Shown piece after piece: positions 4,519 through 56,306 of a DNA stretch of 64,000 nt. Below the pieces are notes generated by a model. That model did not search any database and was not told where the DNA came from. It saw only the letters and a list, made by a program, of their open reading frames with translations. Location of the stretch: the NCBI GenBank assembly GCA_965116955.1, contig OZ220742.1, positions 71,577-135,576 of the forward strand, in the 5' to 3' direction. This stretch comes from Thermoanaerobaculia bacterium. Its GTDB lineage: Bacteria; Acidobacteriota; Thermoanaerobaculia; Multivoradales; Multivoraceae. The translations under genes were made by a program, and so were the position numbers. Numbering within the stretch: position 1 is the stretch's first letter; every line of letters starts with the position of its first letter.

Positions 4519-6522
4519 ATGAGCGCGGTAGAGCCGGCGAGCCGCCTGGACCCGGAAGGGTCCCCGCTCCGGACGACGGGCCCGCAGAAATGGCTGCTCG
4601 GGCTGCTGCTCCTGTGGGCGCTTGCCGTCCGCGTTCTCTTCAGTTGGCCGGACCCGACGATGAACCGGCTCTGGGACGAGCGCTACAACGCCGGCAACGT
4701 CGCCGCGGTCCTGGCCCACGACCAGTGGCGCCCGGTGCGCACGCACTACCCGACGCTCTCCTACCTGCCCCACGCGGCGACTCTCAAGGTGTACGAGACG
4801 GCGCGCTCGCTGCCATGGCTCTCCTCCCTGCCGACGACGTTCGGGATCGCACCGGATGGACGGCCCTATCTCACGCGGATCGCCGTGCGCGTCTCCCGGA
4901 TCATCCAGGCCCTACTCGGCACCGCCTCGCTGTTCGTCCTGTTCCTGATCGGCCGGCGGCTGTTCGGCCCCTGGGTCGGGCTGGGCGCGGCCTTCCTGCT
5001 CGCCGTGGCCCCCTGGCATATGCGCCAATCGGGGGTGTTCAAACCCGACGTCATGCTGGTCCTGACTGCCGTCCTGACCCTCTACGCGATCCTCAGCGCG
5101 CGGCGAAGCGAGAGCCTCCGAGGCTACGCGCTTGCCGGCGCGATGGTCGGAGCAACCGCCGCCGCCAAGTGGAACGGCGCGGCGCTGGCGTTGCCGCTCC
5201 TCTTCGCGATCGCCCTGGGCGGCGTCCGCGACATCGGTCTGCTGGTCCGCCGTACCGCGGCCGCGGCCGCCGGCGGCGCCGGGGTGCTGCTCCTGCTCAA
5301 TCCCTGGCTGGTGCTCGCGCCCGAGTTGTACCGGCGCCACCTCGGATCGACCGTGAACCACTACCGGGAGCGGCTCGCCGAGGTGGGCGCCGGGCTGTTC
5401 GACCAGCCGCTGAACGCCGTGACCAGCCTTGCCGGAAGCGTCTACTTCAGCCCCGTGCTGGGCGCCTGCGGGCTCCTCGGCCTGGGCTGGCTGCTCCTTC
5501 TCTCGCTGCGCGCCCGGCGCGAGGTCCGGGGGCCGCTGCCGGGCGGACGGGGCGACGCCACGGTTGCCGACGCACTCGTCCTCGCCGTCTTCTTCGGCGG
5601 CTACGTCGCCTCCCTTTGGGTCGTCACCCGCTATCCGAAACCGCCCAACTGGCTGATCGTCGCTCCGGTCGTCGCCTTGGCCGGCGCCTGGTGCCTCGGC
5701 AAGCTGGCGAGCGCTGCCCGCTCCCTGCCGGAACGTCGCTTGACGATCGTCGCGTTCGCCATCCTGGCTGCCGGCGCCGGACTGGCCGGACTCGACAAGG
5801 TCCGCTTCGTCCACACCGCAGTGTACGACGTGAACATACCGCTGACTTCGGCGGCCGCCGCCCGAACGGCCGGGAGGCCGAAGCCGCTCAGGGGACGGAC
5901 ATTCATCACCGAACTGCCGCTTGGGAACCAGGACTTCGACCCGCGAATCTGGAACGGGAACTACGTGTCCACGCTGATCCGTACGGACAGCATCGCCGCC
6001 GAGTCCAGGGCGGAGCGGGAGGCGGCCGACGTTCTGCTCTTCCCGGCCGCGCGGCTTGAACCCGACCAGGACTCCGCCTACCGGGAGCTGGCGGCTCAGC
6101 CGGATGTGACCGTCCAGCGTTTCGATCCGAAGCTGTTCCGGCTGCGCGGAGATCCCGTCGTCCTCGTCCGCCGACCCTACGAGGCGCTGGGACCACCCGC
6201 GCCCACCGCCTTCTCCCGTGCGGGCGAGGGACTCTACGAAGTCGATCCGGCGGCGCTCCACCCAGGAACCGACGCACCCGATGCAGTCCCAACCCTCGTA
6301 TCGCTGGAGATCGCGGTACGCACTCCCTCACGCGACGTGGTGGGGATCTCCGTCGAGGTCGAAGGCCAGCGCCTGCCCTGCCGGCACACCCAGAAGGGCA
6401 GGGAACGGCGACGCTGCCTGACCCCGCGGTTCGAAGCGCCGCAGTCGCCGATCCGGATCCTGGTCGAGCCGGCGCGAGAGGTCATCGACGTCACCGCGTT
6501 CCACTGGCGAAGACCTTCCTAG
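4519..6522 (+). CDS. Glycosyltransferase family 39 / ArnT-PMT-like membrane glycosyltransferase
   Basis: 667-aa polytopic membrane protein with an N-terminal transmembrane region and loop pattern typical of dolichyl-phosphate-mannose / 4-amino-arabinose transferases (PMT_2-like), followed by a large periplasmic C-terminal region. Confidence 0.55.
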   Translation: MSAVEPASRLDPEGSPLRTTGPQKWLLGLLLLWALAVRVLFSWPDPTMNRLWDERYNAGNVAAVLAHDQWRPVRTHYPTLSYLPHAATLKVYETARSLPWLSSLPTTFGIAPDGRPYLTRIAVRVSRIIQALLGTASLFVLFLIGRRLFGPWVGLGAAFLLAVAPWHMRQSGVFKPDVMLVLTAVLTLYAILSARRSESLRGYALAGAMVGATAAAKWNGAALALPLLFAIALGGVRDIGLLVRRTAAAAAGGAGVLLLLNPWLVLAPELYRRHLGSTVNHYRERLAEVGAGLFDQPLNAVTSLAGSVYFSPVLGACGLLGLGWLLLLSLRARREVRGPLPGGRGDATVADALVLAVFFGGYVASLWVVTRYPKPPNWLIVAPVVALAGAWCLGKLASAARSLPERRLTIVAFAILAAGAGLAGLDKVRFVHTAVYDVNIPLTSAAAARTAGRPKPLRGRTFITELPLGNQDFDPRIWNGNYVSTLIRTDSIAAESRAEREAADVLLFPAARLEPDQDSAYRELAAQPDVTVQRFDPKLFRLRGDPVVLVRRPYEALGPPAPTAFSRAGEGLYEVDPAALHPGTDAPDAVPTLVSLEIAVRTPSRDVVGISVEVEGQRLPCRHTQKGRERRRCLTPRFEAPQSPIRILVEPAREVIDVTAFHWRRPS

Positions 6523-6635: not shown

Positions 6636-8165
6636 ATGGCCACGGAACTGAACCGATTCCTGACCCCGCTCGACGCCGCCTTCCTCTATGTCGAACGCCC
6701 CAACGAGACGATGCACATCGGCGGTTGCATGGTCTACGAAGGCGAGTTCTCGCGCGAGTACATGGTCGAGCAGCTTGCCGCCCGCATGCACCTCCTGCCC
6801 CGCTACCGCCAGCGCGTGCTGTTCCCGCCCTTCCTCGTCTCCCACCCGGTATGGGTCGATGACCCGTCCTTCAACCTGGACAACCACGTCGAAGAGGTCT
6901 GGATCCCGGAGGACAGCGACCACCAGGTACTCGCCCGCGCCGCCGCCGAGGCGTACGGCGGCATGCTCGACCGCAACCGGCCGCTCTGGAAGGGGATTCT
7001 GCTCCGCGGCATCCCCGGACACACGGCGGTCGTCTGGAAGATCCATCACGCGATGGTCGACGGCGTCTCCGGCGTCGATCTGTCGATGGTGCTGAGCGAC
7101 TTCTCACCTACCGAAGAGCTGCCGGACGCACCGGCCGAGCCCTGGGCGCCGAAGCCGCTGCCGGACTCTCTGAGCCTCCTGCAGGAAGCGATGCAGCATC
7201 GCCTCGGACAACTGAACGAGTCCTGGACGAACGCCGCCTTCGACGCCGCCCGCCCTCGCCTGATGGCCGACCGCCTACGCGAGATGGTGGCGGCCAGCGC
7301 CGCGACCCTGCCGGTCTCCGCCGCTCCGGCGCCGCGCACCGTCTTCAATCGGCCGGTCAGCAAGGAGCGGGGGTTCGCATGGGCCCAGTTCTCCTTCCCC
7401 GAGCTGCGCGCCGTCAAGTCCGCCCTGAGCGGCACCGTGAACGACGTCGTGCTCACCGTGCTCGCCGGCGGTATCGGCCGCTACCTGCGCGAGCGCGGCC
7501 AGGACACGAAGGGAGTCGAGCTGCGCGCCATGTGCCCGGTCAGCATGCGCCAGCAGGACGAACGGGGGCAGCTCGGGAATCTCGTCTCGAACATGATCGC
7601 TCCACTCTTCGTCGGGGTCGACGACCCGGTCGAACGCCTCGGCAGGGAACGGGACGCCATGAACAAGCTGAAGGAGGCCGGGCAGGCGAAGGCCTTCTAC
7701 CAACTGACCCAGTTCGGCGACCGGGTGCCGCCGCTCATGGCCGCGGTCGCGGCGACGATGCCCTTCTCCCAGACCCTGTTCAACACGGTCTCGACCAACG
7801 TGCCCGGGCCGATGATTCCGCTGTACTTCGGACCCCACAAGCTCGTCGACTGGCTGCCGCTCGGCATCGTTTCGAACAACATCGGCCTGTTCGTCGCCAT
7901 CCTGAGCTACAACCAGCGCATCACCGTCGGGATGACGGTGGACGCCAAACTCATCCCCGACGCGTGGTTCCTCGCCCAGTGCCTGGAAGAGTCCTACGCC
8001 GAACTGCGGGAGGCGGCCGGTGTGGAGAGCGAGGAGCCGAGCGGCGCGCGCTGCTTTGCGGCCGCGCCACCCCAGATCGAGTTGCAGGAGGCCGAAGAGG
8101 TCGCCGCCGCGACCGACTCGGACGCCGACTCCCACTCCGACGCGTCTCTGCGAGGAGTCGCCTAG
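6636..8165 (+). CDS. Wax ester synthase / acyl-CoA:diacylglycerol acyltransferase (WS/DGAT)
   Basis: 509-aa protein with the canonical HHxxxDG active-site motif (HHAMVDGVSG) and WS/DGAT N- and C-domains. Its TAG stop overlaps the GTG of the next gene (TAGTG). Confidence 0.85.
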   Translation: MATELNRFLTPLDAAFLYVERPNETMHIGGCMVYEGEFSREYMVEQLAARMHLLPRYRQRVLFPPFLVSHPVWVDDPSFNLDNHVEEVWIPEDSDHQVLARAAAEAYGGMLDRNRPLWKGILLRGIPGHTAVVWKIHHAMVDGVSGVDLSMVLSDFSPTEELPDAPAEPWAPKPLPDSLSLLQEAMQHRLGQLNESWTNAAFDAARPRLMADRLREMVAASAATLPVSAAPAPRTVFNRPVSKERGFAWAQFSFPELRAVKSALSGTVNDVVLTVLAGGIGRYLRERGQDTKGVELRAMCPVSMRQQDERGQLGNLVSNMIAPLFVGVDDPVERLGRERDAMNKLKEAGQAKAFYQLTQFGDRVPPLMAAVAATMPFSQTLFNTVSTNVPGPMIPLYFGPHKLVDWLPLGIVSNNIGLFVAILSYNQRITVGMTVDAKLIPDAWFLAQCLEESYAELREAAGVESEEPSGARCFAAAPPQIELQEAEEVAAATDSDADSHSDASLRGVA

Positions 8166-8986
8166 TGACCGCGGCGGCCCGGCGGCGCCAGGCCAATCCG
8201 ATCTGGAGCGCGAACCCGCGCCTCCTGCGGGACTCGGTGCCGGCGGCGCTGCCGCTGTGGCGTGAACCGTTCGCGGCCGCCGAGTTCGCCTTCCTGCCGT
8301 TCACACCGACCTACCACGGCATCGGCGTTCCGCGCGGCGACGGCGCCGCGGTGATCGTCGTTCCCGGCTTCACCGGCACCGACGGCTACCTGGCGCCGAT
8401 GCGCGGCTGGCTCGGCCGCATCGGCTACCGTCCCTACCGTTCGGCCATCGGGCAGAACGCCGACTGTCTCGACCGGCTGGGCAACCGGCTGATCGGAACC
8501 CTCCAGAAGGCGGCGGACGACACCGGCCGGCGCGCTCACCTGGTCGGCCACAGCCTGGGCGGCATGCTCTCGCGCGGTGTGACGAGCCTGCGTCCCGATC
8601 TGGTCGCGTCCGTCACGACGATGGGCTCACCCATCCGGGGCGTCCGCTCCCATCCTATGGTGATGCGGCTGGCGGAGGCGGTACGCCGCCGCGTCGTCGA
8701 ACGGGACGACGCGCGGGAACCCGCCTGTTTCTCGGGTGACTGCCGCTGCGACCTGGTGCGCTCGGTGCAGAGTCCGTTCCCCGAAGAGGTGCCGCAGCTC
8801 GCCATCTTCACCCGGCGGGACGGCGTCGTCGCCTGGCGCTACACGCGGCTCCACGACCCGTCGCTGAATCGGGAGGTTCTCGGCACCCATTCCGGCCTGG
8901 CCGCCAACGCCCTCGCTTACTGCCATCTCGCTCGGTTCCTGAAGCGCCACCCGAGCCTCGCACTCACCGCGGAGATCGCGACGTGA
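8165..8986 (+). CDS. Alpha/beta-hydrolase (lipase/esterase-like)
   Basis: 273-aa ORF from GTG 8165, overlapping the WS/DGAT stop. Nucleophile-elbow motif GHSLGG. No in-frame ATG near the 5' end, so a GTG start is assumed. Confidence 0.65.
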   Translation: MTAAARRRQANPIWSANPRLLRDSVPAALPLWREPFAAAEFAFLPFTPTYHGIGVPRGDGAAVIVVPGFTGTDGYLAPMRGWLGRIGYRPYRSAIGQNADCLDRLGNRLIGTLQKAADDTGRRAHLVGHSLGGMLSRGVTSLRPDLVASVTTMGSPIRGVRSHPMVMRLAEAVRRRVVERDDAREPACFSGDCRCDLVRSVQSPFPEEVPQLAIFTRRDGVVAWRYTRLHDPSLNREVLGTHSGLAANALAYCHLARFLKRHPSLALTAEIAT

Positions 8987-23569: not shown

Positions 23570-24960
23570 GGTCCGCTCGCGCCGCCCGCCTGATTCGTGA
23601 TCCGGTACAGCTTGCTCCGGGTGCGGATGTAGAGGCTGCCGTCGGCGATCGCCGGCGTCGACATGGCCATCTCGTCGAGCGAGTTCTTGCCGACGACCTT
23701 GAACTCGTCGCCGGCCTCGATCACGAACGTGTCGCCGTCCTCGCTGAGCACGAAGACCTTGCCGTTGTAGGCCCAGGGCGACGCCGTGAAGGCGCCCGAC
23801 CCGCGTTCGATCCGCTGCTTGCCGTAGACCTCGGCGCCCGTCTTCGGATCGTGCGCGGTGAAGAAGCCCCGGTCGAGCAGGGTGTAGAAGCGGTCGCGGT
23901 AGATCAGCGGCGTCGGGTTGTAGGCGCCGGCCTGAGGCTGGTACCAGACCACCCAGCGGTTGCTCTGCTGATCCTTCTCCAGCGTGATGTCGCCTTCGGC
24001 GCCCGGCTTGATCGCGTAGACCGGGCGGACCTGGTCGCCGATGTAGCCCGACGACACGTACAGCAGGCCGTACTTCGAGAACGGCTGCGGAATCGCGATG
24101 GACGACATGCCGCCGAAGTGCCACAGGAGGTTTCCCTGCTCGTCGTACGAACGCACCTGGTCGGTACCCGGCGTGATCACCTCCGTGCGAAGTTCGTTCT
24201 CCCACACGAAGGGGGTCGCCCAGTTGCTCCCCTCTTCGCGGGCGTCGCGCCACAGCTCCTCGCCGGTCGCTGCGTCGAGGGCCATCAGGAAGGACTGGTC
24301 CTCGTTGTCGTTCACGACGTAGAGCTGCCCGTTGTGTACGACCGGCGACGCCGCCGTCCCCCAACCGAAGCGCGTCCGGACCACCTCGAAGCGCTGCTCC
24401 CAGACCGGCTCGCCGTCCAGCGTGAAGGCGAAGACGCCGACGTTGCCGAAGTACGCGTAGATCCGCTCGCCGTCCGTGACGGGAGTCTCCGAGGCGTAGG
24501 TGTTCTTCAGGTGGCGCGGGAAGTCCGGCGCCCCGACCAGCACCTCGCGCTCCCAGCACTTCTCGCCGGTCTCCACCTCGAAGCAGACGACCGACCAGTG
24601 GTGCTCGTCGGCGGACGGCTGCATCCGGTTTCCGCCGAGGTAGAGGCCCTTCTTCGGCTCCTCGACCTCTCCCTCGCTCCACACCGTGGTCAGGTACACG
24701 CGGTCGCCCTGCACGATGGGCGAAGACCAACCCAGGCCCGCCACATCGACGACCCAGGCCACGTTCTCCGTCGTGCTCCAGGTCTCCGGCAGGCGCGGGT
24801 CGTCGTCGGCGACGCTCATGGCGTCCGGGCCGCGGAAGGCCGGCCAGTTCTCAGTGGCCGGCGGAGCGGCGAGGACGGCGACGGCGAAAAGGAGGGCGGC
24901 CGTGGCCGCGGTGAACACGAGTCTAGGTGTGCGCATCCGGAATCTCCAGGTGGAGGTCAT
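23566..24960 (-). CDS. PQQ-like beta-propeller repeat protein (BamB/YfgL-like), secreted
   Basis: Start at 24960 forms an ATGA overlap with the ogt stop. An alternative ATG at 24936 has GGAG 7 nt upstream. Signal peptide (MRTPRLVFTAATAALLFAVAVLAAP). Repeated W/G propeller blades (e.g. NVAWVVDVAGLGWSSPIV, GQLYVVNDNEDQSFLMALDAATGEELW). Confidence 0.75.
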   Translation of the reverse strand: MTSTWRFRMRTPRLVFTAATAALLFAVAVLAAPPATENWPAFRGPDAMSVADDDPRLPETWSTTENVAWVVDVAGLGWSSPIVQGDRVYLTTVWSEGEVEEPKKGLYLGGNRMQPSADEHHWSVVCFEVETGEKCWEREVLVGAPDFPRHLKNTYASETPVTDGERIYAYFGNVGVFAFTLDGEPVWEQRFEVVRTRFGWGTAASPVVHNGQLYVVNDNEDQSFLMALDAATGEELWRDAREEGSNWATPFVWENELRTEVITPGTDQVRSYDEQGNLLWHFGGMSSIAIPQPFSKYGLLYVSSGYIGDQVRPVYAIKPGAEGDITLEKDQQSNRWVVWYQPQAGAYNPTPLIYRDRFYTLLDRGFFTAHDPKTGAEVYGKQRIERGSGAFTASPWAYNGKVFVLSEDGDTFVIEAGDEFKVVGKNSLDEMAMSTPAIADGSLYIRTRSKLYRITNQAGGASGP

Positions 24961-25514
24961 TCTGGCTGGGAAACTGCCTGCGAAGTCGCGCGCGAGCTTA
25001 GCACCGGCGAGAGCCGCAGCTGCCTTCCGGCCACGCGCTGTTCCAGGTCCAGCAACGCCTGCTTCGTCGGCAGACCGCCGCCGAAGCCGGTCAGCCGGCC
25101 GTCGCTGCCGATCACTCGATGGCAGGGCACGACGACCGGCAGCGGGTTGCGGCCGTTGGCGGCGCCCACGGCCCTCGAGGCCGTCGGCTTGCCGATTCGC
25201 GCCGCCAGCTCGCCATAGGAGATCGTCTCGCCGAACGGGATGCGCCGCAGTTCGGTCCATACGCGGCGCTGGAACGCGGTGCCGTGGGGAGAAAGCGGCA
25301 GGTCGAAGTCCTGCCGCTCACCGGCGAAGTACTCCTCGAGCTGCCGTTTCGCTTCCGCCAGCGCCGCCGGAAGCACCTCACTCGAAGGCTTCCAGGTCGG
25401 ACTAGGTGGTTCCACCGCCCGATTCGGCAAGTCGATGCAGTCGATGGAGTCCTCTCCACCCACCAGGCGGAGGGTGCCGATTGGCGTGTCGAAGGCGTGG
25501 TAGATCGCAGTCAT
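24957..25514 (-). CDS. ogt: Methylated-DNA--protein-cysteine methyltransferase
   Basis: 185-aa protein with the active-site PCHRV motif and MGMT DNA-binding domain (RVWTELRRIPFGETISYGELA). Confidence 0.9.
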   Translation of the reverse strand: MTAIYHAFDTPIGTLRLVGGEDSIDCIDLPNRAVEPPSPTWKPSSEVLPAALAEAKRQLEEYFAGERQDFDLPLSPHGTAFQRRVWTELRRIPFGETISYGELAARIGKPTASRAVGAANGRNPLPVVVPCHRVIGSDGRLTGFGGGLPTKQALLDLEQRVAGRQLRLSPVLSSRATSQAVSQPE

Positions 25515-25647
25515 CGGCCGGACTCCTTCCTTGCGTAGTGCGCCCCGTCGGGGCTCAGTCTAGCTCTAGCGTGCGGGACCGGGACGAAACGGCTCCACCG
25601 AGGTGGAGGGGTCAGGTACCCGTGGCCGCGGCGGTCTCGTGACGCTA

Positions 25648-25683
25648 TTGAGTAAATCAACTCATTAGAGTAATCTGCCGTAC
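25648..25683 (+). promoter_or_regulatory. Sigma70-like promoter, predicted leaderless, upstream of the AAA-ATPase/NACHT operon, with embedded imperfect palindrome
   Basis: TTGAGT (25648-25653), 17-nt spacer, TAATCT (25671-25676). The ATG of the ATPase gene lies 7 nt downstream, so the transcript would begin at or next to the start codon. Imperfect palindrome TGAGTaaatcaACTCA at 25649-25664. Locally AT-rich in an otherwise 70% GC context. Confidence 0.35.
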
Positions 25684-26985
25684 ATGGCCGAGTACGAACG
25701 CCCTCAGGTCACAGCTCTACGCCAGCGGCTCGCCGAGCCTCCGAGGACGATCACGGTCGTCAGCGGCCCCAGGCAAAGCGGCAAGACGACCCTTGTAACG
25801 CAAGCGCTGCGCGCAGTCGCCGGGCCTCGAATCTACAAGGATATCGACCAAGCCGGAACCGGTGACTGGAGCACGCTTGCCCCCGCAACGCCCCTCGTGG
25901 AGCCGGACGGCATGACCGGCGTGGACCGGGATCGGGGTTGGCTCGTCGACGTCTGGCGCGAGGCCCGGGACGTGGCGGACCGACACGGTAGCTGCGTCCT
26001 GGTCCTGGACGAGATTCAGAACATCGACCGCTGGACCAGCGTCGTCAAGGGGCTCTGGGATGCCGACAGACGGCGCCGGCGCCCCCTCCATGCGGTCATC
26101 CTGGGGTCGGCCCCGCTGGCCATTCAGGCTGGCCTCACCGAGGGCCTGACCGGGCGCTTTGAGCTGATCCGCTGCACCCATTGGTCTCTCGCCGAGATGA
26201 CCGAGGCCTTCGGCGTCGACCTTCCTGGCTACCTCTACTTCGGCGGCTACCCCGGCGCTGCCCACTTGATTCCATCTCTCCCATTGGATCAACCAGGGGA
26301 CGAGTCCCTTTGGCGACGGTACATCCTGGATTCCCTGATCGAGCCGAGTATCACCAAGGATGTGCTGGCAATGACCCGAATCGACAAGCCTGCTCTGCTA
26401 CGACAGCTCGTCGAGACCGGCGCCTCCTACTCGGGCCAGATCGTCGCGCTCGCCAAGCTCCTGGGGCAACTGCAGGACGCCGGCAACACGACGACTCTTG
26501 CACGCTACCTTGAACTCCTTCGGACAGTCGGCCTGTTCGCGGGGCTGTCCAAGTACGACGGGAGCGCGATACGGCGCCGCAAGTCGCCACCCAAGCTCCT
26601 GGCAATGAACACCGCGGTGATGACCGCGAACTCGGACTACGACTTCCGAGCCGCGCGGGAGGACCGGACTTACTGGGGCCGACTCGTCGAGACGGCGGTA
26701 GGCGCCCATCTACTGAACACCGCCCAGTCAGGCATGCATGTCCACTACTGGCGACAGGGCAACGACGAAGTGGACTTCGTCCTCACTTGGTACCAGCGAG
26801 TTGTCGGCATCGAAGTTAAGAGCGGTGCTCAGCACGGGAGAACCCGCGGGATGGCCGCATTCGAGCGCAAGGTGCGACCCGAACGCGTCATCCTTGTGGC
26901 CACGCACGACTCGGGGCCCCACACCATTCCTCTCGTCGAATTCCTCTCCCGGCCTGCCACCGATTGGTTCGAGGACGCCGAATGA
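25684..26985 (+). CDS. AAA+ ATPase (COG1373 / AAA_14 family) with C-terminal DUF4143-like PD-(D/E)xK domain
   Basis: Walker A GPRQSGKTTL and Walker B VLVLDEIQ. C-terminal NDEVDFVL...GIEVKSG (D-x12-E-V-K) matches the restriction-endonuclease-like DUF4143 module. Stop overlaps the next ATG (ATGA). Confidence 0.75.
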   Translation: MAEYERPQVTALRQRLAEPPRTITVVSGPRQSGKTTLVTQALRAVAGPRIYKDIDQAGTGDWSTLAPATPLVEPDGMTGVDRDRGWLVDVWREARDVADRHGSCVLVLDEIQNIDRWTSVVKGLWDADRRRRRPLHAVILGSAPLAIQAGLTEGLTGRFELIRCTHWSLAEMTEAFGVDLPGYLYFGGYPGAAHLIPSLPLDQPGDESLWRRYILDSLIEPSITKDVLAMTRIDKPALLRQLVETGASYSGQIVALAKLLGQLQDAGNTTTLARYLELLRTVGLFAGLSKYDGSAIRRRKSPPKLLAMNTAVMTANSDYDFRAAREDRTYWGRLVETAVGAHLLNTAQSGMHVHYWRQGNDEVDFVLTWYQRVVGIEVKSGAQHGRTRGMAAFERKVRPERVILVATHDSGPHTIPLVEFLSRPATDWFEDAE

Positions 26986-29900
26986 CCTTCGTCGACCGCA
27001 GTTGCACGGAGCTTCCGAAGCCCGTCGCCGGGCGCGAGCAGCCGCCCGTCTCCAGACCATTGTCGGAGTACCGATCCGAGACCGCATTCGTGCTCCTGGG
27101 CGACCCCGGTGCCGGCAAGACGACGTGCTTCAAGCAGGAGTGCGCGGTGCCGGGAGAGTCCGCGATCCTCGTCCCGGCTCGCGAATTCGTCACGTTCGAC
27201 ACGGAACGCCACCCGGAGTGGCGCGACCGAACCCTCTTCATCGACGGCCTGGACGAGATCCGTGCCGGCGACGGCGACCCGCGCCCCGCTCTGGACCGGG
27301 TTCGCACGCAACTGGACCGGCTGGGAAAACCCACTTTCCGGTTGTCCTGCAGGGAAGCCGACTGGCTTGGAGGCAACGATCGGACCAGGCTGGAGGCCGT
27401 CGCCCCGGGAGGTCGACTCGCCGTTCTTCGGCTTGACCCGCTCACCGAGGCGGACGCGGAGACGATCCTCGGTGACAGCGAGGCCGGCAATGCCATCGCG
27501 TTCCTCCACCAGGCTCACGAGAGAGGACTCGGCAGCTTCCTGCAGAACCCCCAGAACCTGACCCTGCTGGTTGAGGCGGTCGCCGACGGCAGATGGCCCA
27601 GCAACCGTCGCGAGCTGTTCGAAGACGCGTGCCGGCGATTGGTTCAGGAAGTGAACCCGGAGCACCGAGGCGCCGACCGGAACCGGCCGACCGACACGCT
27701 GCTCCTGGAGACTGCGGGCCAGTTGTGCGCCCTCCTCCTGCTCTCGGGGTGCGCAGGCGTCCACTCGGCGGCGGAGAGCAACGGCGCGGACTATCCGGTG
27801 CTCGGCGATCTCGGCCCGCCGTTCGCCGGCCTCTCGCCACGCCAAGGGCAGGTCTTGGCACGCCGACAGCGACTCGTTCTGGCAAGCCGGCTCTTTACCT
27901 CGGCGATGCCGGACTCCAAGGACGCGCGGCGCTTCGAGCCGATACACCGGCACATCGCCGAGTTTCTCGGCGGGCGCTACCTGGCGGAGCGCATCGACGC
28001 AGGTCTCCCGCCGGCTCGGGTCATCGCGCTGACCACCACGGGCGATGGCGGCGTAGTCACCGCCCATCGCGGACTCTCGGCCTGGCTGGCGGCGCATTCC
28101 AAGCCAGCCAGGGCAGAACTGATCGACCGCGACCCGATTGGCGTCGGCCTCTATGGCGACATCGCCGGCTACTCGGGCGACGAGAAGCGGTTGCTGCTCG
28201 AAGCGCTGATCCGCGAAGGCCGGAGACTCGACGACATGGGCTACTCGAACACGGCAGCCTTCGCGTCCCTTGCCGTTCCGGCGCTCGAAACTCCTTTCAC
28301 CGCGTTGCTGACTGCGCCGGGGCGAAGCGAGGACGACCAGTTCGCGCTCAAGTTCGTGCTCAGAGTGCTGAGCCGCGGCACGCCGATGCCTGGGCTCGCA
28401 GCTTCGATCCTCAACATCCTCTACGACGACGGATGGCCGCCAGAGGTCGTCTGGGCAGCGCTCGATGCCTTCATCCGCCAGTGCGCGGACGCGAAGGAGC
28501 GAACCTGCAGGTTGAGACGGATTCTCTCCGGAGTTCAAGGCGGCGGTTTGCGGGATGTGCACAACGAGCTGACCGCCACGGTGCTCGAGGAGCTCTATCC
28601 CGATGCCATCGGACCGGCGGAAATCTGGAGACACCTCGATCGATGTCGACCGACGAGCGTGCATGGACGCCACCGCCTTTTCTGGACGCGCACGCTCGAA
28701 GAGAAGACGACGGACGAGGACATCGGCAAACTCGTCGACGCACTCGCCGCGCAAAGGCCCGACCTCGGTCTGGTCGACAACGGTTTCGGCGAAGGCCGGG
28801 CCTCAGCGGAGAGCCTCCTGGCGCGCGCACTCGCCGTTCACGGCGAAACGCTGACGCCGCAACGACTCTCCGAGTGGCTCAACGGACCCGCCCGGACAGA
28901 CGAGGAGTTCCACGAACTGCGGAGTGCCGAACAGGCGAGGCAGGCGGCATTCGAGCTCCTCCAGATGGACCCGGAGCCCGGCGCAGCCGAAGCGGAATCG
29001 TCCGAATCCCCATCAAGGACCGTGCGTTCCTGGCTGGAGGCTCACCCGGATGCCTACAAGGCCGTTTTCCTGGAGGGCATTCGCCACTACGCCGACGAGG
29101 CGGACCTGCAAGGCAAGGTGCATCTCGTTGACCAGCGGCTGCGGGGGGCACAGCCCCCGACCGACTTCGGACTCTGGTGCCTGACGCAGGCTCGCAAGGC
29201 CGCCGGGGCCCAGCCGGAACTGGCGCGCTGGCTCTTCGGTCGAGCGCGCGAACGCCTCAACGAGGGCGAAGAGGGCTTGTCGCAAAAGCTCATCGACGAC
29301 GCGGCAAACGAACAGCCTTCGCTGCGGCCGCGGCCACTCGATCCCCAAGTCGCCAGGAAGCTACGGGAACTGTCGCACAGGAACCACGCAAGGGTCAGGG
29401 CCCTCCAGGATCAACGCAGGCGAGAAGAACAGGAGTGGCTGGACACTGTTCGCGCCGAGGCGCCGGCCCTGGAGCACAACCGAGGCGCACCGTGGCTTCT
29501 GTATCGCCTGGCGACCGGGTGGCTTCAACGGTACGACCAACAGCCGCATTCCCTCTGCGACTGGCTCACGGGAGAGCTAGGCAACCAGGCTGACCTAGCC
29601 AAGGCGGTTGTCGCCGGTCTGCGCGGCGTCATTGATCGTGAGGACGTGCCGGACTGGAGCGAGGTCCTGCGGCTCCATGGCGAGAACCGGATGCACCAAC
29701 TCGCCACGCCGTTCCTCGTTTCGCTCGACGAACGGGACCTCGCCGACTCGCGATTCGTCGACGGGCTGAGCAAGCGGCAGAAGCGCCAAGCCTGTGCCTT
29801 CTACTTCACCGTACTGATCAGCCGCAGCGTTCATCCGAACTGGTACCGGCGTTTGCTTGAGCGGAGTGTCGAGTTGGTCGCGGATGTGCTGCTCCCGCTG

Positions 29901-31202
29901 GCTCGCCAGGAACTGCGACGCGGCACGGAGAACGTGCCGTGCCTGTGGGACCTGGCGCACGACGACGACCACGCCGACCTTGCTCGCCTCGTCTGTCTGC
30001 CCCTCCTGCGCGCCGTTCCGGTGCGTTGCCACGCCCGGCAGTTGCACAACCTGACGCGTCTGCTGTGGACGGCGCTGCACCATGCGGACCGCGAAGCGCT
30101 GCTCCATCTCGTCGAGAACAAGCTCGCGGCCGGGAGCATGACTGTCAACCAGCGCGTCCATTGGCTGGCGGCGGCTACTGTCGCGGCGCCCGACGCGTTC
30201 GCCGAGCGGCTGGACAACTTCATCGGCGGCAAGGAACTGCGTGCGCGGCAACTCGCCAGGTTCCTGTGGTTGGAACACCCCGAGCCGTTTCGCCCTGCCG
30301 CACTGCCGCCCCACGCATTGGAGATCCTGATCCGGCAGTCGGGCGCCGCCTACGGCGTCTCCGAGCTGAGGGACAGGCCACAAACTGCCGGAAGACCGGG
30401 GAAAGGACAGTACAACGCACAGCCTGAATCGGTGCTCTGGCGCATCCCCGACCTGATCGAGTCCCTTGCTGCTTCACCGGAACCCGAGGCCGGCGCCGCC
30501 CTGAACCGACTGGCAAACGACGAAACGCTTCATCGCTGGCGCTACCAACTTCGCCATGCCTGCGACCGGCAGGCGGTCATCTTCCGCGACAGCTCCTACC
30601 GCCGCCCCGAACTTCGAGAGATTCGCGCAACGCTCGACGATCTCGCTCCCGCCAACGCCGCCGACCTCGCCGCCCTCGCGCTCGACCGCCTGGACGAACT
30701 TGCCCGATCCGTCCGCACCACGAACACGAACGACTGGAGTCAGTACTGGAACCAGGACGGGCACGGCAGACCGACCCGACCCAAAGCCGAGAACGACTGC
30801 CGAAACGCCTTGCTCCGCGATCTGCGGACCCGCCTGCCAGACGATGTCGACGCGCAACCCGAAGGCCAGTACGCCGCGAATCGGCGCGCCGACATTCGTC
30901 TGTCCTGCTCCGGCTTCCACCTGGCCATTGAAATCAAGAAGCACTACCACCCCGCCCTGTATCGCGCGGCGCGCGATCAGCTTGTCGCCAAGTACGCCCA
31001 GGATCCGGCAACCGGCGGCCACGGGATCTTCCTGGCGCTCTGGTTCGGCGGCGCCGACAAGGCGCCGCTGGACGAGACGGGGACTCGGCCCGGCAGCCCG
31101 GAAGAACTTCGCGAGCGGCTTGAAGCCTGCCTCACCAGACAACTGCCGCACGAACAACGACGCAAGATCGCGGTTCGAGTCATCGACGTCAGCAAGCCCT
31201 GA
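26982..31202 (+). CDS. NACHT-type STAND NTPase (1406 aa) with long helical C-terminal region and C-terminal PD-(D/E)xK-like motif
   Basis: Walker A FVLLGDPGAGKTTCF at about 27099-27143. NACHT-signature Walker B TLFIDGLDEIR (hhhhDGhDE) at about 27231-27263. About 1200 aa of helical region follows. C-terminal ADIRLSCSGFHLAIEIKK (D-x12-E-I-K) at about 30888-30941, near-identical in spacing to the ATPase C-terminus. Confidence 0.75.
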   Translation: MTFVDRSCTELPKPVAGREQPPVSRPLSEYRSETAFVLLGDPGAGKTTCFKQECAVPGESAILVPAREFVTFDTERHPEWRDRTLFIDGLDEIRAGDGDPRPALDRVRTQLDRLGKPTFRLSCREADWLGGNDRTRLEAVAPGGRLAVLRLDPLTEADAETILGDSEAGNAIAFLHQAHERGLGSFLQNPQNLTLLVEAVADGRWPSNRRELFEDACRRLVQEVNPEHRGADRNRPTDTLLLETAGQLCALLLLSGCAGVHSAAESNGADYPVLGDLGPPFAGLSPRQGQVLARRQRLVLASRLFTSAMPDSKDARRFEPIHRHIAEFLGGRYLAERIDAGLPPARVIALTTTGDGGVVTAHRGLSAWLAAHSKPARAELIDRDPIGVGLYGDIAGYSGDEKRLLLEALIREGRRLDDMGYSNTAAFASLAVPALETPFTALLTAPGRSEDDQFALKFVLRVLSRGTPMPGLAASILNILYDDGWPPEVVWAALDAFIRQCADAKERTCRLRRILSGVQGGGLRDVHNELTATVLEELYPDAIGPAEIWRHLDRCRPTSVHGRHRLFWTRTLEEKTTDEDIGKLVDALAAQRPDLGLVDNGFGEGRASAESLLARALAVHGETLTPQRLSEWLNGPARTDEEFHELRSAEQARQAAFELLQMDPEPGAAEAESSESPSRTVRSWLEAHPDAYKAVFLEGIRHYADEADLQGKVHLVDQRLRGAQPPTDFGLWCLTQARKAAGAQPELARWLFGRARERLNEGEEGLSQKLIDDAANEQPSLRPRPLDPQVARKLRELSHRNHARVRALQDQRRREEQEWLDTVRAEAPALEHNRGAPWLLYRLATGWLQRYDQQPHSLCDWLTGELGNQADLAKAVVAGLRGVIDREDVPDWSEVLRLHGENRMHQLATPFLVSLDERDLADSRFVDGLSKRQKRQACAFYFTVLISRSVHPNWYRRLLERSVELVADVLLPLARQELRRGTENVPCLWDLAHDDDHADLARLVCLPLLRAVPVRCHARQLHNLTRLLWTALHHADREALLHLVENKLAAGSMTVNQRVHWLAAATVAAPDAFAERLDNFIGGKELRARQLARFLWLEHPEPFRPAALPPHALEILIRQSGAAYGVSELRDRPQTAGRPGKGQYNAQPESVLWRIPDLIESLAASPEPEAGAALNRLANDETLHRWRYQLRHACDRQAVIFRDSSYRRPELREIRATLDDLAPANAADLAALALDRLDELARSVRTTNTNDWSQYWNQDGHGRPTRPKAENDCRNALLRDLRTRLPDDVDAQPEGQYAANRRADIRLSCSGFHLAIEIKKHYHPALYRAARDQLVAKYAQDPATGGHGIFLALWFGGADKAPLDETGTRPGSPEELRERLEACLTRQLPHEQRRKIAVRVIDVSKP

Positions 31203-31349
31203 GCACACACCAACCAGACGGTCGGCGACCGCAAGGTCAGCGACGCCCGGCCGTCGGTTGCCTGACCAGTCAGCGCTACGCCCTAGCCAAGGCGTGGATC
31301 ACACCATTTGAACAAACTCGTTCAGCAGCGCAACTCCCGGCTGTCCATG

Positions 31350-32273
31350 TCAGCCGCCGCCGCCCCGGCGCCACAACAGGATCGCCGCGTAGGCGCGCAG
31401 CGGGCGCCAGGCCTCCGCCATCGCGTCCAGCTCGGCGGCGCTGGGCGGCTGGTCGCGGTCGATCGCCTTGCGCAGGCCCAGGTCGCTGGCGGGAAACGCG
31501 TCGCGGTCGCCCAGGGCGCGCATCGCGACGTACTCGACCGTCCAGGGGCCGATGCCCTTGATGTCGAGCAGCCGGCGGCAGACCTCTTGCGGGTCGGCGT
31601 CCAGCCTCAACCCGCCGCTCGCAACTTCCGAAGCCAGGTCACCAAGCGCCCGGGCGCGGGACCCGGGCAGACCGATCTTCCGGAGATCGAGGGACGCGAC
31701 CTGCTCCGGACCTGGGAACGTCCGCTCGAGCCCGGGCTCCGCCAACCCCGAGGGAAGCTCCGGGCCCAGGGCCGCGACAAGGCGGCCGGCCAGGGTCCGC
31801 GCGCCGGCCACCGAGATCTGCTGACCCAGCACAGCCCGCACCGCGGTCTCGAAGCGGCACCAGGCGCCGGGAACCCGTACGCCCGCCGGGATGCGGCCAC
31901 CCGAAGCCAGTTCGGGGGCACCGCTCAAGGCGGAGCGAATGGCGTCCGGGTTCGCGTCGAGGTCGAAGAGTCGCCGCAGTCGGCGCTCGACCTCTTCCTC
32001 AAGATGCGATTCGAGCCGTCCACTCGCAGTGGCATGTACTTCCGCGCTCAGGCGGGAGCCTCCGAAGTCGACCCGCAGGACGCCGGGCCGTGAACCGCTT
32101 TCCGGCGCCCCCGGCGCCAGTCGCGCGAGGTCGATCGTCCGGCAGTAGAGCAGGCGCTCCGCGTCGACGACCTCAACGCCCGGCAACGCGCGGGCGGCGA
32201 AGAACTCGAGCAGGCCCCGGACGTCGAACGGCCGCCGGCAGGACGCTTCAAGCGAGCAGACGGCGTGCGGCAT
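31350..32273 (-). CDS. alkA: DNA-3-methyladenine glycosylase II (AlkA-family, AlkA_N + HhH-GPD)
   Basis: Internal ATG at 32273 chosen (MPHAVCSLEASCRRPFDV...). HhH-GPD motif LLDIKGIGPWTVEYVAMRALGD with catalytic Asp. Confidence 0.75.
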   Translation of the reverse strand: MPHAVCSLEASCRRPFDVRGLLEFFAARALPGVEVVDAERLLYCRTIDLARLAPGAPESGSRPGVLRVDFGGSRLSAEVHATASGRLESHLEEEVERRLRRLFDLDANPDAIRSALSGAPELASGGRIPAGVRVPGAWCRFETAVRAVLGQQISVAGARTLAGRLVAALGPELPSGLAEPGLERTFPGPEQVASLDLRKIGLPGSRARALGDLASEVASGGLRLDADPQEVCRRLLDIKGIGPWTVEYVAMRALGDRDAFPASDLGLRKAIDRDQPPSAAELDAMAEAWRPLRAYAAILLWRRGGGG

Positions 32274-32359
32274 CCATGGTGGAGCATAGTCGTCCGGCGG
32301 AAGCCCGAGCCGCGATAGCCTTCGCCGCCGCTCACACCTCAACCAACCGGAAACCGACG

Positions 32360-50968: not shown

Positions 50969-52168
50969 TCACACAGGCCGGCGCACGAAGTCTCTCCCCG
51001 CCGCCCACAGCGCCACGCAGCCCAGCCAGGACATGACCGCTCCCAGCGCGTAGGCGCTGCGGTAGCCGCCTGCCAGGTCGTGAGCCCATCCCAGCAGGAA
51101 GGGTCCCAGCGCGACTCCGATCGAGGCCAGCAACGTGCTCACCGAGTAGATCCGCGCGTAGCGCCTGGTGCCGAAAGCCTCGGCGAGCAGAAGTGGTTGC
51201 ATCATCAGGAAGCTACCGATGGTGAGCCCGAAGGCGCTCGAGGCGATCAGCAGGCCCGCCACGCTGGTGCTCGATCCCAGGACGACCAGCGTGAATCCCT
51301 GGAGAACCAGCAGGACCAACGCGAACCCACGGTAGGGAATCCGCTCCAGCAACGCGCCGGAAGCCAGCCGCCCCACGACGCTCGAGGCGGCCAGCACCGA
51401 GACCGCGAGGCCCGCCACGCCGGGCTCGTGGACGCTGACCAGGCGAAACTGGTGGGCAATGGCGCCAACCTGCGCCATCAGGCCGAAGAAGAACGTGCCG
51501 GCAATGCCCAGGAAGTAGCGTGAGCGGAACGCCTCCCGGGCGGCGACACCCGGCTCCTCGGTGCCCTCGAACTCCCCCACCCGGTCCATCTCTCCGCGCG
51601 GCCGCGGAATCAGCCGCCACAGCGACAGGGGCAGGATGCCCACGACGTACAAGGCGGCCACGATCTCGGTCCCGCGCCGCAGACCGTACTCACCCATCAC
51701 CCAGGCGGCCAATGGGGCGACGGCGATGCCGCCAACCGAGAGCCCCGTGAACACCACCGACAGGGCAAGCGCCCGCCGGCGGGCGAACCAGCGCGTGACG
51801 ACCGTGCTCGCGGTCAGCATGTTCGTGGCGGAGAATCCGAAACCGAAGAGGGCGAAGGCCGCGTAAACCTGGAGGACAGTCTCGACACGACCGATAAGGA
51901 CGAGAGATACGGCGCAGATCGCGACGCCCGCCGCGACCGACCAGCGGGCATCGACCCGTTCGATCACGCTGGCCACAGCGAGCCCGGCGAAACCGCTCAC
52001 GGCGAAGAAGATGGTCGGGGCAAGCGAGGCCGCGAAGACGGTCAGCCCGCGTTCACGCGTCAGCGCTTCCAACAACACCGACTGGTTGTAGAAGCCGAGG
52101 CCGGACGAGAACATCATCATCGCGAACAGCGCACCGACGATCTGCCAGCGGGTGGAGATGCGCGGCAT
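50969..52168 (-). CDS. MFS transporter
   Basis: About 12 TM helices. Start MPRISTRWQIVGALFAMMMF at 52168; an alternative in-frame ATG at 52222 lies inside the duplicated segment. The upstream part of ORF ..52390 is out-of-frame overlap with the permease gene. Confidence 0.75.
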   Translation of the reverse strand: MPRISTRWQIVGALFAMMMFSSGLGFYNQSVLLEALTRERGLTVFAASLAPTIFFAVSGFAGLAVASVIERVDARWSVAAGVAICAVSLVLIGRVETVLQVYAAFALFGFGFSATNMLTASTVVTRWFARRRALALSVVFTGLSVGGIAVAPLAAWVMGEYGLRRGTEIVAALYVVGILPLSLWRLIPRPRGEMDRVGEFEGTEEPGVAAREAFRSRYFLGIAGTFFFGLMAQVGAIAHQFRLVSVHEPGVAGLAVSVLAASSVVGRLASGALLERIPYRGFALVLLVLQGFTLVVLGSSTSVAGLLIASSAFGLTIGSFLMMQPLLLAEAFGTRRYARIYSVSTLLASIGVALGPFLLGWAHDLAGGYRSAYALGAVMSWLGCVALWAAGRDFVRRPV

Positions 52169-52270
52169 CAACGCGCCTCGCGCAAGGATGGCAAAAATCC
52201 GACCGGCGCTGAGCGCCACCATTGCATCTGCCAGCGGGTGGAGATGCGCGGCATCAACGCGCCTCGCGCA
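52140..52270. repeat. Perfect 43-45 bp direct duplication (copies 52140-52184 and 52226-52270) separated by a 41-43 bp unique spacer
   Basis: ctgccagcgggtggagatgcgcggcatcaacgcgcctcgcgca occurs twice. Each copy contains the permease stop / MFS start junction (..CGCGTTGATGCCGCGCAT.. on the coding strand). Confidence 0.85.
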
Positions 52271-54851: not shown

Positions 54852-55549
54852 CGGGCGCTAGCTTCCGCCACGCGGCCGTCCACCATGACCAGCTCGCGGT
54901 CGGCGCGCGCAGCCACGGCAGGATCATGGGTCACCAGCACCAGGGTCGATCCGAATCGATCCCGCAGCGCCATCATCACATCGAGAACCGCCGCACCGGT
55001 CACCGAGTCCAGGTTGCCGGTCGGCTCGTCCCCCAGGAGGATCCGGGGCTCGGCGGCGAACGCCCTGGCCAGAGCCACGCGCTGCTGCTCCCCGCCCGAG
55101 AGCTGCGACGGATAGTGGTGGACGCGTTCCGCGAGGCCGACCTCCGCCAGGAGTTCCTCCGCCCGCCGGCCGGAGCGCCTGCGCCCAAGGAGGTCGAGCG
55201 GAAACTGGACGTTCTCGCGCGCGGTCAGGTTTGGAAGCAACTGGAACGCCTGGAAGACGAGGCCGATCTTCTCGCGCCTCAGCAGGGCCAGTTCGTCCTC
55301 GCTGAGATGCTCGATCGGCTGACCGTCGATCAGAACGCTCCCGGCGGTAGGCCGGTCGAGTCCGGCAAGCAGCGCGAGCAACGTCGACTTGCCGGCCCCG
55401 GAAGGGCCCCGCACGGACACGCACTCGCCAGCGGCCACTTCGAGATCGACGTCGTCGACCACGACCAGGGTGCGTTCCCCTGAGCGCAGTTCCCGACGCA
55501 GTCCGCGAGTCTCGAGGCGGGCAGGGGCCCCCTGCGACACGGATGTCAC
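54848..55549 (-). CDS. ABC transporter ATP-binding protein (LolD/MacB-type)
   Basis: GTG start at 55549 (the upstream part of the long ORF is artefact). Walker A GPSGAGKST, signature LSGGEQQRVALARA, Walker B ILLGDEPTGNLD. Confidence 0.85.
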   Translation of the reverse strand: MTSVSQGAPARLETRGLRRELRSGERTLVVVDDVDLEVAAGECVSVRGPSGAGKSTLLALLAGLDRPTAGSVLIDGQPIEHLSEDELALLRREKIGLVFQAFQLLPNLTARENVQFPLDLLGRRRSGRRAEELLAEVGLAERVHHYPSQLSGGEQQRVALARAFAAEPRILLGDEPTGNLDSVTGAAVLDVMMALRDRFGSTLVLVTHDPAVAARADRELVMVDGRVAEASAR

Positions 55550-55572
55550 CGCCCCGGGCGCATCCCCGGGAC

Positions 55573-56256
55573 TCAAACGTAGCCCAGCATCGCCCGCCAC
55601 TGCTCGAGGCTGTCCGGTCGGAGGTAGGCGTTCCACATGAGTTCCCGGCCGATCGTCGAACTGGACTCGGGGCCGTAGTCGTGGCCCGGGTAGATCGCGA
55701 GCTCCGGCGGCAGGCCCTTCAGCCGCTGCAGGGAGCGGTACATCGCGTCGACATCGCTGTGCGGAAGGTCGATCCGGCCGATCCCCTGCACGAACAGCGT
55801 GTCCGCTGTCAGTACATGGCTTCCGGCGCGGAAACAGCAACTGCCCGGTGAGTGGCCCGGGGTGTGCAGCACCTCGACCGCCAGCTCGCCCAGTTCGAGG
55901 ACATCGCCGTCCCGGAACGATTCCACGCGGTGCGGCGGGCAACCGGCGATCTCGGCACCGCGCTCCGCTTCGGCCTCGTGAATCAGCATCGGCAGGTCGA
56001 ACTCGGCGCGCAGTTCGCGCACCCCCGGAACGTGCTGGCCGAAGATGTCGCCGCCGATGTGGTCCTGGTGAAAGTGAGTCGCCAGCACGCCGACCACCTC
56101 GTAGCCCTGCTCCTCCGCGATCCTGACGACGCCGAGCGGCTCCCAGGCCGGATCGACGACCCAGGCGCGGCGGGTCGACGGGTCGGCCAGGACGTAGACG
56201 AAGTTCGCCATCGGTCCGGCCTGGATCTGGATCAGGCGCGGTTCGCCGTCGCTCAT
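55573..56256 (-). CDS. MBL-fold metallo-hydrolase (hydroxyacylglutathione-hydrolase-like)
   Basis: THFHQDH motif, with downstream HTPGHSPGS and PGHDYG ligands. Confidence 0.75.
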   Translation of the reverse strand: MSDGEPRLIQIQAGPMANFVYVLADPSTRRAWVVDPAWEPLGVVRIAEEQGYEVVGVLATHFHQDHIGGDIFGQHVPGVRELRAEFDLPMLIHEAEAERGAEIAGCPPHRVESFRDGDVLELGELAVEVLHTPGHSPGSCCFRAGSHVLTADTLFVQGIGRIDLPHSDVDAMYRSLQRLKGLPPELAIYPGHDYGPESSSTIGRELMWNAYLRPDSLEQWRAMLGYV

Positions 56257-56306
56257 CGTCCGCGGAATCTACCCCGGCCCCGGCCGGAGTTGTAATCTCG
56301 CCGGCC

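Follow-up and report, generated by a model that had tools for sequence, protein, structure and literature searches.

Two adjacent genes in a 64,000-nucleotide stretch of DNA from a Thermoanaerobaculia bacterium (contig OZ220742.1, positions 71,577 to 135,576 of the forward strand; hereafter 'the window') raise the question of whether their products act separately or as parts of one system. Gene 1 (25684-26985, plus strand) starts with ATG and encodes a 433-amino-acid ATPase with AAA_14 and DUF4143 domains and a predicted PD-(D/E)xK fold, which belongs to a NACHT-coupled sub-lineage of the defence candidate PDC-S01. Gene 2 (26982-31202, plus strand) also starts with ATG and encodes a NACHT NTPase of 1406 amino acids from the EruA family (Pfam DUF8371). 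A preliminary description of the locus had proposed that they form a coupled, defence-type NTPase module, and both reading frames, their ATGA overlap and all the motifs it quoted are present in the sequence. The pair is indeed inherited together across phyla, and in some lineages it is fused. We consider it probable, though well short of certain, that the two proteins are subunits of one bacterial NLR-like immune complex directed against phages (or other mobile elements).

Conservation and fusion of the gene pair

The whole window has a G+C content of about 69% throughout. Long antisense open reading frames, which are usual in high-GC DNA, are present, and one of them (26829-28754, minus strand, 641 amino acids, opposite gene 2) is most likely a high-GC artefact. 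The reality of the two genes must therefore rest on homology, for which the evidence is overwhelming, as 3141 homologues of gene 2 and more than 8000 of gene 1 were found. The junction between the genes reads GAC GCC GAATGACC, and the TGA stop codon of gene 1 shares four bases with the ATG of gene 2 (ATGA, 26982-26985, plus strand), an arrangement that predicts translational coupling. An in-frame TTG at 26964, upstream of this ATG, would add six residues to gene 2, and homologue alignments lend no support to it as a start codon.

Our scan of species-representative genomes returned 80 loci, and ten others brought the set analysed to 90. The scan loci span Acidobacteriota, Chloroflexota, Latescibacterota, Nitrospinota, Tectimicrobiota, Binatia and Spirochaetia, as well as Dadabacteria, Acidimicrobiia, Gemmatimonadota, Verrucomicrobiota and Beta- and Gammaproteobacteria. 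A gene 1 homologue lies immediately 5′ of the NACHT gene, on the same strand, at 70 of these 80 loci, so the co-occurrence of homologues, which the preliminary description had named as a point to check in gene neighbourhoods, is borne out. Across all 90 loci, the junction is most often a 4-nucleotide NTGA overlap (65 loci), with a 1-nucleotide or other overlap in four loci, a gap in six and a fusion in two. In essentially every coupled locus, the NTPase site and the nuclease triad of each protein are retained.

The two proteins also occur as one polypeptide. Among the top 120 homologues of gene 2, 15 are proteins of 1795-1834 amino acids that carry AAA_14 and DUF4143, and 14 of these 15 are also marked with PF28130. 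In one such protein (P0003), which was checked at the level of single residues, positions 3-426 align with gene 1 at 57% identity, and the EruA profile covers residues 446-1832. The two fused loci in our set (L006 and L065) are joined in frame, with the sequence '...FLSRPASAWF-RSE-FVQRSCTEI...', in which three residues separate the end corresponding to gene 1 from that corresponding to gene 2. Such a short join suggests that gene 1 sits against the N-terminus of the NACHT protein, which is the canonical effector position of an NLR. The site of the join corresponds to a peptide, 'RTCTE', that is conserved at the N-terminus of gene 2 in the coupled clade and absent from the basal solo proteins, and that we thus regard as a candidate docking element.

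In a neighbour-joining tree of gene 2, the base is formed by solo, mostly plasmid-borne proteobacterial genes (L003, L004, L005 and L082). Beyond this base lies one large clade, nearly all of whose members are paired; the scattered solos (L020/L025, L046, L049, L056, L057 and L060) are nested within it, so that they are best read as secondary losses. The subclade that includes the window has the fused forms as its sister group. On the side of gene 1, the 74 homologues that are coupled or fused group together in a single clade, and none of the 71 stand-alone relatives falls within it. Furthermore, the two genes have co-evolved, in that their pairwise identities correlate over 70 loci (Pearson 0.87, Spearman 0.82).

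These patterns bear on the simplest alternative, namely that a PDC-S01 gene and an EruA-like NACHT nuclease gene are two independent single-gene defence systems that happen to stand side by side. Defence genes are often adjacent, PADLOC defines PDC-S01 as a single gene, the NCBIfam model for EruA describes gene 2 only, and solo EruA-like genes occur on plasmids and in some genomes. Gene 1 relatives, too, are commonly found alone: when metagenomes were scanned with a gene 1 profile, 80 relatives of 22-50% identity were recovered, and in the 64 whose downstream sequence was long enough to judge, no NACHT gene followed. Against this stand the 4-nucleotide overlap in 65 loci from many phyla, the in-frame fusions, the fixed order and strand, the single clade formed by the coupled ATPases, and the correlated divergence. 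Chance adjacency would not be expected to outlast such divergence, with gene 2 down to 30% identity, and we therefore judge independence of the two genes to be very unlikely.

The association is nevertheless asymmetric, and the obligate coupling that had initially been proposed holds for one large clade only, since basal and several nested EruA-like genes are solo and most gene 1 relatives stand alone. The closest stand-alone relative of gene 1 (L091, 6001-10340; 49% identity) overlaps the start of a type I restriction-modification (R-M) hsdR gene by 4 nucleotides, and others adjoin patatin or MNT-HEPN genes. The embedding of L091 in a type I R-M operon matches the 'guilt-by-embedding' context by which PADLOC nominated PDC-S01. 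Likewise, proteins scoring above 1000 bits against the EruA model are found both with the partner (Thauera, L032) and without it (Comamonadaceae, L082; Bradyrhizobium plasmid, L005). At the Comamonadaceae locus, where the upstream partner is missing, a distant DUF4143-type ATPase gene (26% identity; 7344-8414) lies directly downstream, and the same ATPase family may have become associated here independently.

Some carriers have more than one copy. A Longimicrobiales locus (L055, 6739-16777) has two tandem pairs and a third, distant DUF4143 ATPase, and a Vicinamibacterales chromosome (OY760734.1) has two pairs (L010 and L019) about 48 kb apart. Many carriers (L007, L008, L011, L021, L035, L049, L061, L074, L081 and others) are metagenome-assembled genomes with names or bin labels like those of marine sponge symbionts, for example Poriferisodalis, Spongiisociaceae and Porisulfidus; judged by record titles only, the family looks especially common in sponge symbionts.

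Domains and predicted activities of the two proteins

Gene 1 matches Pfam AAA_14 over residues 21-172 (E-value 1.9e-16) and DUF4143 over residues 225-381 (2.3e-23). A comparison with PADLOC, envisaged in the preliminary description, identified gene 1 and left gene 2 without any match, the NLR and AVAST models included. Specifically, gene 1 matches the PDC-S01 model PDLC04791 essentially end to end (4e-147; residues 4-429 against profile positions 2-394 of 395), as well as six more PDC-S01 models. By contrast with PADLOC, NCBIfam holds no model that covers gene 1.

The Walker A motif of gene 1, GPRQSGKTT (residues 28-36), is encoded at 25765-25791, and its Walker B motif, LVLDEIQ (residues 105-111), at 25996-26016. 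Across 27 homologues, G28, P29, R30, G33, K34 and T35 are invariant, as are D109, E110, E336, E362, D364 and E377, with K379 nearly so. In the coupled loci, K34 is retained in 73 of 73 and D109 and E110 are likewise invariant. The C-terminal motif EVDFVL...GIEVK (residues 362-379) is part of a catalytic core, E336...E362-V-D364...E377-V-K379, encoded at 26689-26820, whose key residues are also kept in the coupled loci (E336 and E377 in 74/74, D364 and K379 in 73/74). DUF4143/COG1373 has been catalogued as PD-(D/E)XK family no. 100 (Steczkiewicz 2012, PMC3424549), and weak matches of gene 1 to the YraN family add support for this assignment. Judging from residue conservation and family listing, the C-terminus of gene 1 thus belongs to the PD-(D/E)xK superfamily, with nuclease activity predicted. 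Searching solved structures with the gene 1 sequence gave only spurious TALE-repeat matches.

Gene 2 matches the NCBIfam model NF058535, 'NACHT domain-containing antiphage protein EruA', with an E-value of 9.7e-243 and 809.2 bits, and does so collinearly in one stretch (residues 26-1404 against profile positions 17-1318 of 1318). Its relatives fall into tiers against the same model: the closest score 786-821 bits, a second tier 945-986, and some betaproteobacterial and plasmid forms 1028-1098. The last include Thauera linaloolentis (1028 bits), the Comamonadaceae protein (1098) and the Bradyrhizobium plasmid protein (1035), all of which exceed the curated whole-protein equivalog cut-off of 1000 bits. 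Relatives in a public protein collection are tagged with the recent Pfam family PF28130, which is DUF8371.

In our local copy of Pfam-A, no family matched gene 2 at E <= 1 except a weak AAA_22 (E 0.13), and the Pfam NACHT model was unmatched. The family is evidently too divergent for that model, so that its membership of NACHT rests on motif and fold. The NACHT module (about residues 30-400; 27069-28181, plus strand) contains a Walker A motif, GDPGAGKTT (residues 40-48; 27099-27125), and a Walker B/NACHT signature, FIDGLDE (residues 86-92; 27237-27257). NACHT proteins are defined by a D[GAS]hDE signature after Walker B (Kibby et al., bioRxiv 10.1101/2022.07.19.500537), which D88-G89-L90-D91-E92 fits; all five are unchanged across 14 sequences and almost so across 27, and D88, D91 and E92 are retained in 70 of 70 coupled and 12 of 12 solo loci. 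In a fold comparison, the nucleotide-binding domain with its helical and winged-helix extension matches NACHT proteins better than other STANDs, with a clear gap to the non-NACHT STANDs NRC2 (12.3), MalT (12.2) and Apaf-1 (10.0). Gene 2 is thus a member of the NACHT clade of STAND NTPases.

The C-terminal domain of gene 2 (about residues 1250-1406; 30729-31199, plus strand) adopts an alpha/beta fold like that of restriction endonucleases, whose core strands carry D...(D/E)xK. A sequence-profile search of solved structures, made with both the full-length protein and the C-terminus, returned nothing meaningful, so the fold comparison was needed for this assignment. The motif ADIRL...AIEIK spans residues 1303-1319, and the core E1294...D1304...E1317-I-K1319 is encoded at 30861-30938. 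E1294, R1302, D1304, E1317, K1319, Q1333 and Y1338 are invariant in 27 sequences with identities down to 23%. An exhaustive profile search found the domain in 3437 representative proteins, 1259 of them at E <= 1e-30, and throughout the best 150 of the 3437 it lies at the extreme C-terminus; the full-length matches are about 1320-1470 or about 1810 amino acids long. This C-terminus, too, belongs to the PD-(D/E)xK superfamily, and nuclease activity is predicted for it.

Both C-termini are therefore of PD-(D/E)xK fold with conserved catalytic residues, as had been suspected, and the D-x12-E-x-K spacing is the same in both. The linker between EVDFVL and GIEVK, and between ADIRL and AIEIK, is seven residues rather than the eight initially counted. 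The further proposal that the two C-terminal modules are homologous to each other did not survive profile-profile comparison: hhalign gave a probability of 1.7% over 23 columns around the catalytic core, by which specific homology of the two domains was ruled out. The shared motif is a generic signature of the superfamily and not a mark of specific common origin.

Between the NACHT module and the nuclease domain of gene 2 lie about 850 residues (about 401-1249; 28182-30728, plus strand), fewer than the 1200 residues of helical sequence estimated before. The parts that were modelled (385-555 and 1150-1250) are helices. Identity to the window protein is only 0.24-0.30 in residues 500-900, whereas it is about 0.5 in both the NACHT module and the nuclease domain. 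No part of gene 2 varies more than this middle region. Arms-race selection on a sensor would be expected to have that effect, and we presume that the region is a sensor. In the same 90% cluster as the window's gene 2, two shorter close relatives (P0242, 503 amino acids; P0243, 796 amino acids) are found as two pieces on the same contigs, which suggests that in some strains the copy is frameshifted or split, and decaying.

Taken as subunits of one immune complex, the proteins could work as follows. Gene 2 would be the NACHT receptor, whose variable helical middle would sense an infection cue. Nucleotide-dependent oligomerisation of the NACHT module would then bring the C-terminal PD-(D/E)xK domains together and allow them to cut DNA, and so give rise to a defence phenotype. 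Assembly of this kind has been proposed for other STAND and NACHT nucleases. Gene 1 would be produced in a fixed proportion by way of the ATGA overlap, would bind the N-terminal end of the NACHT protein, and might serve there as a second, ATP-driven nuclease effector or as a co-factor that engages DNA. We tentatively extend this to a two-protein NLR, a possible but less secure proposal, in which a complete AAA+ ATPase-nuclease of the PDC-S01 type occupies the N-terminal 'effector slot' of the NACHT receptor, either in trans or through fusion, giving two different NTPase engines and two different PD-(D/E)xK sites.

Gene 1 could instead regulate or guard the NACHT nuclease, either by holding gene 2 inactive in the manner of a toxin-antitoxin system or by loading it on DNA, its nuclease fold serving for DNA binding only. 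Its position upstream, with translational coupling, is how antitoxin-toxin and regulator-effector pairs are usually arranged, and its absence from the basal EruA-like loci makes it look like an add-on. Gene 1 is also the more conserved of the two (mean identity across loci 61%, versus 40% for gene 2), as would be expected if its contacts were with host or self and not with phage. However, the Walker A and B motifs and the full E...D...ExK set are invariant in the coupled loci, which argues for retained ATPase and nuclease chemistry, and a permanent covalent fusion is hard to reconcile with a labile antitoxin. A purely regulatory role for gene 1 thus seems unlikely to us, and we retain the immune complex as the preferred reading.

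Genomic context and expression

In the window, the pair is flanked by two alkylation-repair genes, ogt (24957-25514, minus strand) and alkA (31350-32342, minus strand), and the same synteny is found in L001, L171 and L172/L173. Since both proteins have nuclease-fold domains, their position between two such genes, in the window and three syntenic relatives, might suggest a housekeeping role in DNA repair or maintenance. Yet the ogt/alkA context is confined to the lineage of the window; neighbours at other loci (L002, L086 and those on plasmids) are unrelated or of defence type. Even in a further syntenic relative (L090, 14240-22522), a Uma2-family gene takes the place of alkA, and ApeA and a type III R-M system (N6_N4_Mtase and ResIII) lie a few genes downstream, which suggests that the site is a variable integration hotspot. 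The patchy distribution, the multiple copies per genome and the variable middle region, which are typical of defence genes, also speak against a repair function, as does atypical third-position G+C content (GC3). The latter is 0.79 in gene 1 and 0.795 in gene 2, versus 0.82-0.93 in the flanking genes, and suggests horizontal acquisition, perhaps of older date. We rejected the repair role, which appears extremely improbable given that the ogt/alkA flanks are lineage-specific.

Elsewhere, several relatives lie beside defence and mobility genes (toxin-antitoxin and R-M systems, ApeA, Ppl, Abi and integrases), and this favours an immune function for the pair. A relative found on 22 contigs (P0101) is followed by BrnT toxin-antitoxin, type IIG R-M and MqsA/CopG antitoxin genes, a homologue on a Pantoea plasmid lies between Ppl, Abi and integrase genes, and a DDE transposase is found near another (L002). 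tRNA and Rfam scans of the whole window gave nothing, and no flanking repeats that would mark an island were found there. Phage records yielded one partial match, and IMG/VR viral contigs two loci, of which one has the pair and the other lacks it; the system is thus rarely phage-borne. A search of E. coli RefSeq genomes for an annotated EruA, with the DNA of the Pantoea homologue as query, gave no match.

Gene 1 is preceded by a putative promoter (25648-25676, plus strand), composed of TTGAGT (25648-25653), a 17-nucleotide spacer and TAATCT (25671-25676), followed by 7 nucleotides to the ATG. Such a distance leaves no room for a Shine-Dalgarno sequence. An AT-rich, leaderless promoter had been proposed for the locus. 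In favour of this, the element TTGnnn-17-TAAnnT, followed by 7-9 nucleotides to the ATG, is conserved in L001 and L090; on the other hand, a sigma-70 consensus scanner found no match across 25400-31500. A leaderless or near-leaderless transcript of gene 1 is accordingly plausible but unproven. No plus-strand terminator was found 3′ of gene 2. The divergent intergenic region between ogt and gene 1 also contains a 9-nucleotide inverted repeat (TGCGCCCCG / CGGGGCTCA, 1 nucleotide apart; 25539-25557), which could be an operator or a hairpin. Farther away, at 51000-54000, the window shows a strong positive AT skew (0.21-0.37), which is accounted for by minus-strand genes for membrane proteins (an MFS transporter and a MacB/FtsX permease) beside an ABC ATPase gene (54848-56545).

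Several observations weigh against an antiphage complex made of both proteins. The basal EruA-like genes have no partner, and two of them score above the EruA cut-off, so the ATPase is not universally required. The window's gene 2 itself falls below this cut-off (809 versus 1000 bits), and the antiphage label of EruA is NCBI's name, the primary paper for which was not found in the literature searched. The correlated divergence of the two genes could stem from the shared descent of adjacent genes and not from physical interaction. The neighbours in the window are housekeeping or repair genes (Ogt, AlkA, PQQ and GFO_IDH) rather than those of a defence island. Finally, E. coli B carrying one representative of PDC-S01 was not protected against T7, T5 or T4.

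Comparison with known defence systems

The components of the pair are of known kinds, namely the EruA family, PDC-S01 and bNACHT-type, NLR-related proteins, and the claim that the system is undescribed therefore fails for gene 2, an EruA-family protein, and for gene 1, a PDC-S01 candidate. What may be new is their conserved coupling and fusion, which is undescribed in the databases and papers searched; since the source paper of EruA was not found, it may have been described earlier. In our literature search, DUF8371 appeared in no paper, DUF4143 and NACHT appeared together in one unrelated genome paper only, and no paper in the searchable literature linked DUF4143 ATPases to NACHT defence proteins.

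A large NACHT nuclease clade spanning many phyla keeps a dedicated ATPase-nuclease partner, mostly by translational coupling and, in one sister lineage, by covalent fusion. On our reading, annotation by separate 'PDC-S01' and 'EruA' calls would split one system in two or catch half of it. Similarly, an EruA-type gene or a PDC-S01 gene cloned alone may score as inactive, and the PDC-S01 representative mentioned above did fail to protect. Because the fusions put the ATPase-nuclease at the effector position of an NLR, they offer a testable model of how an abundant, uncharacterised ATPase-nuclease family could be wired to a sensor. Should the two-protein NLR prove true, it would provide the first functional context for PDC-S01, and a composite NLR architecture absent from the sources searched. 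A coupled pair with a NACHT protein above the EruA cut-off is available in culture from Thauera linaloolentis 47Lol (L032; gene 1 at 5100-6344, gene 2 from 6344 to about 10426).

The closest systems each share some features with the pair. In the working model for Avs (AVAST) proteins, binding of a trigger leads to oligomerisation and so to activation of a nuclease; they are usually single genes with N-terminal effectors. Like them, the pair combines a STAND NTPase, a nuclease effector and a large sensor region. However, gene 2 belongs to another STAND subclass, NACHT, and matches no AVAST model in PADLOC.

Defence proteins of the bacterial NACHT or NLR-like kind are in general described as products of single genes. 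Bacterial NACHT (bNACHT) genes have been reported to occur only rarely in operons, and those operons to be poorly conserved (Kibby et al.), whereas here the operon partner is strongly conserved, and gene 2 is unmatched by PADLOC NLR or Pfam NACHT models. The same work acknowledges effectors at the extreme C-terminus of some bacterial NACHT proteins, so the layout of gene 2 in this respect, which had initially gone unrecognised, has precedent. Pairing of a nuclease and an NTPase in an operon is also a feature of the two-gene systems for which complex formation is reported to be universal (Ragucci et al., bioRxiv 10.1101/2025.07.10.664194). In our pair, each protein combines an NTPase with a nuclease domain, and one of the two is a NACHT receptor; we found no evidence that the pair is among the 16 systems studied.

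PDC-S01 is a single-gene, unvalidated candidate, which one survey (PMC12988326) places fourth in frequency among the defence (candidate) systems of all prokaryotes. Gene 1 shares its AAA_14 plus DUF4143 architecture and its full-length profile match, but forms a monophyletic sub-lineage that is coupled or fused to a NACHT protein. HyoA (NF058534) gives a weak but long match to gene 2 (6.9e-43), which in relatives extends up to position 1428 of the 1430 in the profile. The match points to a paralogous family whose proteins resemble gene 2 in length and layout, but of which gene 2, at 146 bits against a cut-off of 1200, is no member. EruA (NF058535) is the nearest relative, with the same N-terminal NACHT module, long helical middle and C-terminal nuclease-fold domain, collinear with gene 2 from end to end. 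Gene 2 does not reach the EruA cut-off, and the clade of the window carries a translationally coupled ATPase-nuclease and the N-terminal 'RTCTE' peptide, which is missing from the basal solo forms.

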